DNA of 64,000 nt from IMG/VR virus record IMGVR_UViG_3300010201_000017, one strand, 5' to 3'. Each line of letters opens with the position of its first letter. Within the stretch, counting starts at the first letter, position 1. A model generated the notes under the pieces. The model had not been told where the DNA came from. It did no database searches and saw only the letters and a program-made list of their open reading frames with translations. Shown in pieces: positions 27,000-27,865 of this stretch. The DNA comes from a virus. Lineage: Duplodnaviria > Heunggongvirae > Uroviricota > Caudoviricetes. A program made the translations under genes and the position numbers.

Positions 27000-27707
27000 A
27001 TGAGCCTCAAATGGCGAGAATTGATCAACGAGATCAACACGACCTCTGACGCCTACCTTCTTTGCGTCAGTGGCGGCGTCGATTCCATGTTTCTGCTGAC
27101 GCTATTCGCAAAGAATTGCACCCAGAAGATGCGAGTTGCGCACTTTAACCACAGGCTCCGGGCCACGGCCGACACTGAGGAAGCCTTCGTCCGGAAGACC
27201 TGCGAAGGCTACGGCCTTGAATTCTTGTCGGCTCGAGGCGATCCAGTCGCAATGCGGGCGGCGTCTTCACTCGAAGCAGAAGCCAGAAATCAACGATATG
27301 GCTTCTTCGGCAGCATCCAGAGGGAAGGGGAGCTGCTCGTTACCGGACACCATGCCAACGACCAGCTGGAAACCGTTCTCCTTCGCCTCATGCGAGGGTA
27401 CCCAGACGACAATCTTCGAATGAAGAAGCTGAGCGGCATCCGATACAGACCGCTGCTGGAGATCCCAAAAGCGGTCATCGTCGAACAGGCCCGCCGGCGT
27501 CAAATCCCATGGATGGAAGACGCCAGTAACGAGGACAATGCGTTTGAACGCAACTGGGTTCGAAACGTCCTTGTGCCGCAGATGATGGAGCGTCGAAACG
27601 TTCTCAAGACAATTGGGCTCAAAAAGCCGAGGGAATCTGAACTTGGAAGAAGAAGCGATTTCGAATCCTGTCGGGACGAGAACGCTCGGAGCAGGCTGTC
27701 GGTTTAG
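27000..27707 (+). CDS. tilS: tRNA(Ile)-lysidine synthetase TilS, short form (N-terminal PP-loop catalytic domain only)
   Basis: PP-loop SGGVDS, HFNHRLR, ARNQRY and TGHHANDQLETVLLRLMRG. At 235 aa it lacks the C-terminal tRNA-binding domains of typical TilS of about 430 aa. Confidence 0.75.
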   Translation: MSLKWRELINEINTTSDAYLLCVSGGVDSMFLLTLFAKNCTQKMRVAHFNHRLRATADTEEAFVRKTCEGYGLEFLSARGDPVAMRAASSLEAEARNQRYGFFGSIQREGELLVTGHHANDQLETVLLRLMRGYPDDNLRMKKLSGIRYRPLLEIPKAVIVEQARRRQIPWMEDASNEDNAFERNWVRNVLVPQMMERRNVLKTIGLKKPRESELGRRSDFESCRDENARSRLSV

Positions 27708-27789
27708 TCAAATTGTATCCTTTGGTCAGCCATGGATTCGATTCACATCAGGGTAGACTTTTCGATTGGAAACACGTATATGAATCCTC

Positions 27790-27865
27790 GGCCGCTTAAC
27801 TCAACGGTTAGAGTGCCCCGCTCATAACGGGTTGGTTCTGGGTTCGAATCCCTGAGCGGCTACCA
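27790..27865 (+). tRNA. tRNA with anticodon CAU (tRNA-Ile2/lysidine or elongator tRNA-Met), CCA encoded
   Basis: Hand-folded: acceptor GGCCGCT/AGCGGCT with a G1·U72 wobble, D arm ACTC/GAGT, anticodon loop CUCAUAA, T loop TTCGAAT, 3' ACCA. Adjacency to tilS favours tRNA-Ile2. There is one mismatch each in the anticodon and T stems. Confidence 0.8.

Follow-up and report, generated by a model that had tools for sequence, protein, structure and literature searches.

The window analysed here, a stretch of 64,000 nucleotides from the IMG/VR virus record IMGVR_UViG_3300010201_000017 with a GC content of 55%, carries a gene encoding a TilS-like PP-loop ATPase of 235 amino acids (27000-27707, plus strand, ATG start) which is followed, after a spacer of 82 bp (27708-27789, plus strand), by a tRNA gene with the anticodon CAU (27790-27865, plus strand). 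TilS, the enzyme that forms lysidine at C34 of tRNA-Ile2, is essential in bacteria, where it attracts interest as a possible antibiotic target. The main difficulty for the enzyme lies in telling tRNA-Ile2 from tRNA-Met, which has the same anticodon. A sequence-only reading of this stretch had described the locus as a minimal TilS reduced to its catalytic domain and had suggested that the CAU tRNA next to it is its substrate. The data presented below agree with this description and make it probable, with some reserve, that a functional, naturally single-domain TilS paralogue and the adjacent tRNA-Ile2 form an enzyme-substrate module on an accessory replicon.

The family to which the enzyme belongs and its fold are clear. 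The sole Pfam match of the protein is PF01171 (PP-loop, residues 19-189, E=6e-43), and the NCBIfam model TIGR02432 ("lysidine_TilS_N") recognises it with 153.4 bits for a curated cut-off of 93.6, the next-best PP-loop families (TtcA, LarE) reaching only ~20 bits. The equivalog for full-length TilS, NF007942, remains below its cut-off (103.7 bits vs 606 required), and no match to PF09179 or PF11734, which would correspond to the C-terminal domains CTD1 and CTD2, was found in the protein or in the neighbouring open reading frames (ORFs). An AlphaFold2 (AF2) model built from an alignment of 34 family sequences has a mean predicted local distance difference test score (pLDDT) of 90.9 and is ordered from residue 1 to ~210, with a disordered tail (211-235). 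When this model was compared with the PDB using Foldseek, the first six ranks were all occupied by TilS structures (1NI5, 2E21/2E89/1WY5 and 3A2K; E 2e-14 to 2e-11), the N-domains of which match over 214-222 columns with 28-30% identity and a root-mean-square deviation (rmsd) of 2.3-3.4 Å. NcsA and TtuA rank below (E of at least 2e-9, 13-18% identity), and GMP synthases are also found behind TilS.

Recent enzymology recognises two types of TilS, type I composed of the N-terminal domain (NTD), CTD1 and CTD2, and type II composed of the NTD and CTD1, and the window protein has the architecture of neither. The CTD1 and the helix-turn-helix CTD2 that follow the linker helix in type I enzymes are both missing, and the alignment to the type II structure 1WY5 ends at residue 224 of the 317 of the Aquifex protein, with a TM-score normalised to the target of 0.58-0.60. 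Sequence alignments reach the N-domains only, namely residues 10-202 in Escherichia coli, 27-224 in Aquifex aeolicus and 18-213 in Geobacillus kaustophilus. Within this region the motifs SGGxDS, HxxH, HHxxDQxET, RP(L/F)L, WxEDxSN and RNxxR all align with those of the three solved TilS, so that assignments of catalytic residues in the short protein are as good as this motif alignment. The PP-loop itself (S24-G-G-V-D-S29) aligns with those of 1NI5, 1WY5 and 3A2K and is invariant in the 34 family members, which share 26 invariant residues including SGGVDS, HxxH, HHxxDQxET, RG, WxEDxSN and RNWxR. Conservation stops at residue 207 in this alignment, which delimits a conserved core (residues 1-207, 27000-27620) and a variable, disordered tail (residues 208-235).

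Proteins of this kind are not confined to the window. A database search retrieved ca. 90 clusters having 39-84% identity to the window TilS and, apart from a few partial sequences, a length of 197-250 amino acids; type II-like proteins of 290-340 amino acids surface only under ~40% identity, and annotation pipelines already label the short proteins as TilS. When the core of the window gene is compared with five relatives, the ratio of non-synonymous to synonymous substitution (dN/dS) amounts to 0.05-0.25, synonymous sites being saturated; for tilS in two related replicon lineages it is 0.05-0.11. The gene is thus under purifying selection at its present length. Judged from sequence and predicted fold, the 235-amino-acid ORF is a genuine single-domain relative of TilS and not a decaying fragment, and it probably represents a new architectural variant that works like TilS.

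The tRNA gene is 76 nt long and includes an encoded CCA. It scores 60.4 bits with the Rfam tRNA model (E=1.4e-10) and has the pairs G1·U72, C3-G70, C4-G69, G5-C68, C11-G24, U12-A23 and C29-G41, together with A37, A38 and A73, as well as two stem mismatches, C27·U43 and U50·U64; its anticodon stem reads C·U, C-G, C-G, C-G, G-C. G1·U72, C4-G69, G5-C68 and the two mismatches are those that had been noticed from the sequence alone. The choice between Ile2 and Met, which the sequence-only reading had left to classification, falls on the side of Ile2: ARAGORN reads the anticodon as CAT and labels the gene "Met", but the Ile/Met difference ratio of the tRNA is 0.72, for 0.47-0.86 among Ile2 references and 1.08-1.85 among Met references in a leave-one-out analysis. 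A ratio of 0.6-0.9 has been reported for groups of tRNA-Ile (Silva 2006, PMC1635315), and the frequency of C4-G69/C5-G68 is given in the same study. The mean identity of the window tRNA is 0.66 to Ile2-type, 0.42-0.52 to Met-type and 0.35-0.45 to fMet-type references. In its D loop (8 nt, AACGGUUA) and its variable loop (UGGUU) it agrees with Ile2-type tRNAs of Rhizobiaceae and other Hyphomicrobiales and differs from the Met type, in which the D loop has 9 nt and the variable loop reads GGGUC. The marks of initiators (C1xA72, A11-U24/G12-C23 and the three closing G-C pairs of the anticodon stem) are missing as well. The identity set of the E. coli isoleucyl-tRNA synthetase (IleRS) reportedly comprises A73, C4-G69, U12-A23, C29-G41, A37 and A38 (Nureki 1994), all of which occur in the window tRNA, position 5-68 being G-C instead of C-G.

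References for this typing comprised E. coli ileX and metT (sequences confirmed at 100% identity, the ileX match being a PGAP-annotated tRNA-Ile), a PGAP-annotated tRNA-Ile(CAU) of an E. coli phage-plasmid, single-copy CAU tRNAs of Sinorhizobium and Shinella replicons of 3.5-4.6 Mb (listed as plasmids in PLSDB, though of chromosome size), plasmid CAU tRNAs from Rhizobium, Paracoccus, Bradyrhizobium, Microvirga and S. fredii, a Met-type tRNA of Rhodobacter and the three CAU tRNA classes of Saccharibacteria loci. In a search of 5,426 E. coli genomes, the window tRNA matched this phage-plasmid tRNA-Ile(CAU) and nothing else, and the closest relatives in PLSDB are alphaproteobacterial Ile2-type CAU tRNAs, with G3-C70 in three of the four inspected; most alphaproteobacterial Ile2-type references carry this pair. 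BLAST searches against phages returned only generic T-arm matches to unrelated tRNAs, and a match taken for an alphaproteobacterial tRNA-Met (locus L211; labels of this form designate the contigs and loci compared) was rejected when it turned out to be a tRNA-Thr(CGU). Taken together, the sequence features assign the window tRNA to the Ile2 type rather than to Met or fMet, a typing which is good but not final.

The association of the two genes is conserved in related replicons. In L119-121, where TilS is 72% identical to that of the window, a CAU tRNA lies 72 bp downstream of the gene, and in L206 (74% identity) it lies 305 bp downstream. Across these orthologous tRNAs, 97.6% of the cloverleaf cells are paired and eight of 21 pairs show compensatory changes (3-70, 5-68, 6-67, 7-66, 10-25, 27-43, 30-40 and 51-63), a number reached in none of 500 shuffles; position 3-70, for instance, is U3-A70 in L119. 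Six pairs never change (G1·U72, G2-C71, C4-G69, C28-G42, C29-G41 and G31-C39) and the anticodon loop CUCAUAA is invariant. That G1·U72 is kept while neighbouring pairs turn over suggests that it is a functional feature. The mismatches C27·U43 and U50·U64 are private to the window copy.

These observations bear on whether the locus could be a mere relic, with a truncated tilS pseudogene standing beside a decaying tRNA. Two stem mismatches, a G·U at 1:72, a protein of about half the canonical TilS length and a disordered, non-conserved C-terminal tail would fit such a scenario, which is nonetheless very improbable: dN/dS is low over saturated synonymous divergence, length is kept across ca. 90 clusters, the cloverleaf has been maintained through compensatory changes, and the mismatches are confined to the window copy, the conservation of G1·U72 speaking in favour of function. 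The pseudogene explanation was rejected on dN/dS and tRNA covariation.

The spacer between the tilS stop codon and the tRNA contains a promoter-like motif, TAGACT (27754-27759) and TATATG (27777-27782) separated by 17 nt, which stops 7 nt short of the 5' end of the tRNA. The spacers of L119/L120 and L206 keep, amid otherwise diverged sequence, the motif T(A/G)GAC(T/A)-N17-TATA(T/C)N, which ends 7-12 nt upstream of the tRNA across copies. Since a scan of 26900-28100 with a strict consensus detected no sigma-70 promoter, TAGACT-N17-TATATG is regarded only as a candidate promoter, which would give a very short leader. With its own conserved promoter-like motif, the tRNA would not require co-transcription with tilS. 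The spacer had also been described as rich in GANTC, and three sites are indeed present in its 82 bp (27735, 27740 and 27782) for ~0.3 expected; at least three sites are found in only ~1% of 100-bp windows, and there is no depletion over the whole window (3.86 per kb vs 3.81 expected). Only three 100-bp stretches contain four GANTC sites (51121-51220, 12898-12997 and 61524-61623), of which one lies directly upstream of a tRNA(AAU) gene (see below) and one directly upstream of an rpoD-like gene (13026). Taken with the three sites that precede tRNA(CAU), these two clusters hint at a methylation-dependent control of the promoters concerned, of the CcrM/GcrA type.

Linkage of short tilS genes to CAU tRNAs was also observed outside this replicon family. 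In several unrelated, AT-rich phage groups of IMG/VR, tilS-like genes encoding 203-225 amino acids sit 6-44 bp from a CAU tRNA, and the linkage appears in independent lineages (L084/087/100, L126, L088/089 and L109/110/111). In three of these groups the tRNAs form arrays of 10-20 genes, with the CAU tRNA as the immediate neighbour of tilS. Most of the TilS-adjacent phage CAU tRNAs are of the Ile2 type. TilS loci having enough flanking sequence were clustered at 60% identity into 117 lineages; among the loci listed, 5 of 9 NTD-only lineages have a CAU tRNA at a distance of up to 100 bp, as do 2 of 50 type II-like lineages and none of 58 type I lineages (Fisher p=1.5e-5). These counts come from a biased sample since the loci were gathered by pattern scans; loci from the genome and metagenome scans served as controls for types I and II and, among the matches listed, those from genomes were all canonical TilS, as were nearly all of those from the metagenome scan. 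Overall, comparison of these loci indicates that the linkage is conserved in related replicons and recurrent, independently, in phage contigs. As a separate case, the viral contigs L113/L114 have a CAU tRNA of 91 nt (5462-5552) whose long variable arm gives it a class II shape, 416 bp upstream of a gene for a TilS-like protein of 206 amino acids.

Several points weigh against an enzyme-substrate module. The typing relies on small reference sets (12 Ile2 and 5 Met), partly labelled by rule, and the window tRNA has C3-G70 where G3/A3 or C70/T70 has been described as a complete discriminator of tRNA-Ile from tRNA-Met and fMet (PMC1635315); this pair is however uninformative rather than excluding, because E. 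coli tRNA-Ile2 itself has C3-G70. Relatives of the short TilS at 60-65% identity (Agrobacterium rubi, Rhizobium leguminosarum, L123-125, L205) have no tRNA within 5-15 kb, so that tRNA linkage is the property of one subclade, and no tRNA was found within 4 kb of tilS in phage PA5oct. L119-121 possess, 0.7-1.2 kb further on, a second and more canonical Ile2-type tRNA (9932-10005 in L119; 9411-9484 in L120/L121) which could be the real substrate there; it has G1-C72 and A73, lacks an encoded CCA and resembles E. coli ileX in its anticodon stem. In L088/089 and L109, the TilS-adjacent CAU tRNAs look like Met-type (ratios of 1.25 and 1.06), and in Saccharibacteria the CAU tRNA nearest to the type II tilS is of the Met type, the Ile2 and fMet types being 1-4 kb away. 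Because of these Met-type neighbours, adjacency alone is no proof of substrate identity. AUA is moreover rare in the window, with 44 of 1003 Ile codons (4.4%) or 2.5 per 1000 codons, and deletion of CTD2 from a type I enzyme cuts activity dramatically and relaxes discrimination (PMC11947777).

Some side observations concern the same loci. A TnpB fragment lies between the two CAU tRNAs of L119, the TilS-adjacent tRNA of L119-121 has a U73 discriminator, and no remnant of the second tRNA of L119 was detected in the window. In favour of the pairing, the replicon pRlX5 of R. leguminosarum carries a short TilS of 235 amino acids and an Ile2-type tRNA(CAU) with G1·U72 and G3-C70 (L207 2994-3069; NZ_CP140867.1 1112203-1112278), the two being 120 kb apart; this tRNA is 88% identical to the single-copy tRNAs, with G1-C72, of the Sinorhizobium and Shinella replicons of chromosome size. 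In the Saccharibacteria loci (L013, L025, L037, L069, L128, L129, L150, L169 and others) the three CAU tRNA classes are all found at no more than ~4 kb from a tilS gene for a type II protein of ~295-310 amino acids, most often with the Met-type as the nearest at 5-900 bp on either strand, and this Met-type tRNA also has G1·U72, plus an A31·G39 mismatch.

One explanation compatible with part of these data is that the short protein is an active lysidine synthetase acting on the host tRNA-Ile2 or on another tRNA of the replicon, the adjacent tRNA being an independent member of a loose "translation island". The solitary tilS genes at 60-65% identity, the second tRNA of L119-121, the promoter-like motif of the adjacent tRNA itself, the closeness of all three CAU tRNAs to tilS in Saccharibacteria and the other translation-related genes of the window (RF-1 domain, GatB/YqeY domain, ClpS and RpoD; see below) would all be accommodated. 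We nevertheless consider it unlikely, as the adjacent tRNA types as Ile2 and so needs modification of C34 to be useful, the neighbour of NTD-only tilS within phage arrays is specifically the CAU tRNA (three array lineages), and the linkage concerns 5 of 9 NTD-only lineages vs 2 of 108 others among the loci listed.

Another explanation is an enzyme of relaxed or altered specificity, which would lysidinylate any CAU tRNA including host tRNA-Met, or would use another amine or cytidine, with a role in conflict between element and host. Loosened acceptor-stem discrimination upon CTD2 deletion in BcTilS (PMC11947777), the pairing of a short enzyme with a Met-type tRNA in L088/089 and L109, the low AUA demand of the window and its conflict or mobile-type genes (AbiEii, ART-PolyVal, ADP-ribosylglycohydrolase and TnpB) point in this direction. 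Even without CTD2, however, the same enzyme did not accept tRNA-Met (PMC11947777), the N-domain motifs of TilS are all conserved, including those aligned with the regions of the lysine and ATP sites, and, for a replicon stably maintained in cultured Rhizobiaceae, conversion of tRNA-Met would be toxic, so that such a role appears more doubtful still. If the enzyme were promiscuous towards tRNA-Met, it would provide mobile elements with a new route to rewire host decoding.

The enzyme-substrate module therefore remains the preferred reading, supported by the Ile2 typing, by a linkage kept with compensatory changes in the tRNA and by its recurrence in phages, lysidine formation itself being what we infer from them. 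The proposal that the two genes supply AUA decoding as a unit holds to the extent that sequences can show it; because AUA is rare in the window, such a supply is not explained by heavy demand, and codon compensation as the main rationale was down-weighted. By comparison, AUA reaches 8-33 per 1000 codons in the AT-rich phage loci, and AUU makes up 32% of the Ile codons of the window. Within its 64 kb a single tilS-like gene (tblastn) and no other CAU tRNA were found, the only other tRNA being an odd tRNA(AAU) (51241-51316, plus strand) that ARAGORN predicts as tRNA-Ile(AAT) and that Rfam scores at 53 bits, reading it with a 9-nt loop. It has the loop G32-U33-A34-A35-U36-G37-A38, the mismatches A31·C39 and U5·U68 and an encoded CCA, and no close relative was found in PLSDB. 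Bacterial Ile tRNAs do not usually combine A34 with G37. The AUN codon box is the one served by both window tRNAs.

For catalysis, substrate, recognition mode and physiological role, the following course can be proposed. The Ile2-type tRNA(CAU) would be transcribed from its own short-leader promoter, the short TilS would adenylate C2 of C34 with ATP via its PP-loop, and lysine would then be added to give lysidine. With this change the tRNA would lose its Met identity for that of Ile and would read AUA instead of AUG, being charged by the host IleRS. In the absence of CTD1 and CTD2, recognition would be confined to the anticodon stem-loop, with C28-G42, C29-G41, G31-C39 and the loop CUCAUAA as candidate determinants. 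TilS is known to dimerise, and a homodimer may add tRNA contacts; co-evolution of enzyme and tRNA is probable. The two genes would free AUA decoding of the element from the low-abundance tRNA-Ile2 and the TilS of the host, and tRNA(AAU) may extend this supply to A/U-ending Ile codons generally. It is possible that a 55%-GC element supplies readers for both of these codons, which would be poorly served by a GC-rich host; the module may also possibly serve as redundancy against tRNA-targeting toxins.

The replicon to which the window belongs can be approached by its content and relatives. The exact 235-amino-acid protein is recorded in JGI metagenome 3300000497 on contig Incfw_1000046 (233.7 kb), syntenic relatives of the locus occur on JGI contigs of 820 kb, namely Ga0495661_0000002 of 3300046665 and Ga0495637_0000001 of 3300046520, and remoter relatives of the short TilS on contigs or replicons of 1.0-1.4 Mb, including some from cultured Rhizobiaceae such as a 1.37-Mb contig of A. 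rubi and the 1.32-Mb R. leguminosarum plasmid pRlX5. A. rubi GCA_013320875.1, R. leguminosarum TP16 and Rhizobium sp. BK176 are among the cultured strains in which members of the family occur. No near-identical DNA was found when 15 kb around the tilS locus were compared by megablast with PLSDB plasmids and INPHARED phages. PHROGs gave no phage hallmark (structural or packaging) match among the large ORFs of the window, and no match for tilS or for seven of nine large neighbouring ORFs; Pfam matches were obtained for only some 50% of the larger ORFs. From these 64 kb, we infer that the window derives from an accessory replicon, very large and rich in ORFans, whose host is an alphaproteobacterium of the Hyphomicrobiales, and it is probably neither phage nor core chromosome. 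The host very probably has its own canonical tilS and tRNA-Ile2; as these are expected beside an accessory replicon, their presence would be no argument against the module.

Among the other genes are a protein of 189 amino acids with an RF-1/PCRF domain (4267-4836, plus strand), a full RpoD (13026-14909, plus strand; 778 bits for a cut-off of 555), a protein of 278 amino acids consisting of the GatB/YqeY C-domain only (14997-15833, plus strand) and a CTP synthase (38153-39805, minus strand) that is 80-82% identical to the chromosomal PyrG of Bradyrhizobium, Tardiphaga and Afipia. Further matches correspond to ClpS, MgsA, PcfJ, DUF2786/DUF7168, SNF2, CHAP and He_PIG proteins. Some of the translation or housekeeping paralogues are domain-only, as TilS is (the RF-1-domain and GatB/YqeY-domain proteins). 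A TnpB/IS605-family gene (47284-48507, minus strand) lies inside a GC-rich patch (61%) and, by its coordinates, contig Incfw_1000046 would end at ca. 47,486 of the window, at this gene. Its assembly probably broke at the TnpB repeat, the window coming from a longer assembly.

Directly upstream of tilS are two tandem paralogues, 34% identical to each other (25023-25985 and 25995-26981, plus strand), that bear the label DUF8359 from PF27633 in the JGI gene calls. With gaps of 9 bp between them and 18 bp to tilS, they probably form one operon with it. The DUF8359-tilS order is found only in the syntenic replicons L119-121 and L206. Neither protein has a Pfam, NCBIfam, PDB or PHROG match, only three homologues were found in the database and the AF2 model is unusable (pLDDT 46), so that a role as a trans-acting tRNA-binding partner of TilS is neither supported nor excluded.

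A TilS that lacks any appended domain, yet is widespread and kept by selection, would amount to a natural experiment on the minimal protein needed, especially as it recurs beside its presumed substrate. The pair is a plausible self-contained module and, as its sequence features suggest, illustrates how enzyme and substrate may move together on mobile replicons; it would add an enzyme-plus-substrate case to the translation functions of phages and giant plasmids and could give a compact pair for AUA reassignment in synthetic biology. A bolder and only tentative extension, on which we would not rely at present, is that the NTD-only TilS is a third natural architecture, a minimal reader of the anticodon stem-loop co-evolved with a G1·U72 tRNA-Ile2, and that the two constitute a portable, possibly host-orthogonal AUA cassette which has repeatedly arisen or spread on megareplicons and phages. 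In that event the C-terminal domains, now held necessary for discriminating Ile2 from Met, would be dispensable wherever the enzyme moves with its tRNA.

Virus-encoded TilS have already been reported for the Pseudomonas phages MIJ3/PA5oct, the Ralstonia phage RsoM2USA and chloroviruses (PMC6892783, PMC8504454, PMC7589089). The jumbo-phage protein gp263 of PA5oct/MIJ3 (203 amino acids) is likewise encoded by a mobile element, has the length of an NTD alone and shares 30% identity with that of the window, while ORF84 of RsoM2USA encodes a TilS of 349 amino acids. Phages of the PA5oct/MIJ3 type also carry tRNA genes including "tRNA-Met" (PMC6892783); the jumbo-phage papers treat tilS as a curiosity, the missing domains and a cognate tRNA going unmentioned (PMC6892783, PMC8504454). 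Unlike these phages, the window element has no phage hallmark genes among its large ORFs (PHROGs). In chloroviruses, a putative lysidine synthase accompanies viral tRNAs and is read as boosting AUA decoding (PMC7589089), in a context where AUA use is 12-13-fold above that of the host, whereas AUA is rare in the window; the host is also eukaryotic, and adjacency of enzyme and tRNA has not been described there. No description of an NTD-only TilS class or of its linkage to tRNA-Ile2 was found in the searchable literature; older reviews may name further types.

Closer to the window in their architecture are the IMG/VR phage contigs mentioned above (L084, L087, L088/089, L100, L109-111 and L126), in which the short TilS is only 26-41% identical to that of the window, genomes have 33-41% GC and a high AUA use of 8-20 per 1000 codons, and the tRNA is mostly located upstream of tilS, within its array, and not downstream as in the window. 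With the type II enzymes (Aquifex aeolicus AQ_1887, PDB 1WY5/2E21/2E89; Mycobacterium smegmatis TilS) the window protein shares the catalytic PP-loop N-domain, at 29-30% identity and an rmsd of ~2.3-2.7 Å for Aquifex; the relation to Aquifex-type TilS raised by the sequence-only reading thus holds with all motifs aligned, the chain stopping before the Aquifex CTD1. CTD2, which binds the acceptor stem, is absent from both, so that discrimination would take place without touching the acceptor stem, as in type II TilS. Type II enzymes, ~290-350 amino acids long, keep CTD1 (~100 residues, PF09179 region) after the linker helix, whereas the window protein ends right after this helix with a non-conserved, disordered tail of 28 residues and, unlike them, is an accessory-replicon paralogue encoded beside a tRNA.

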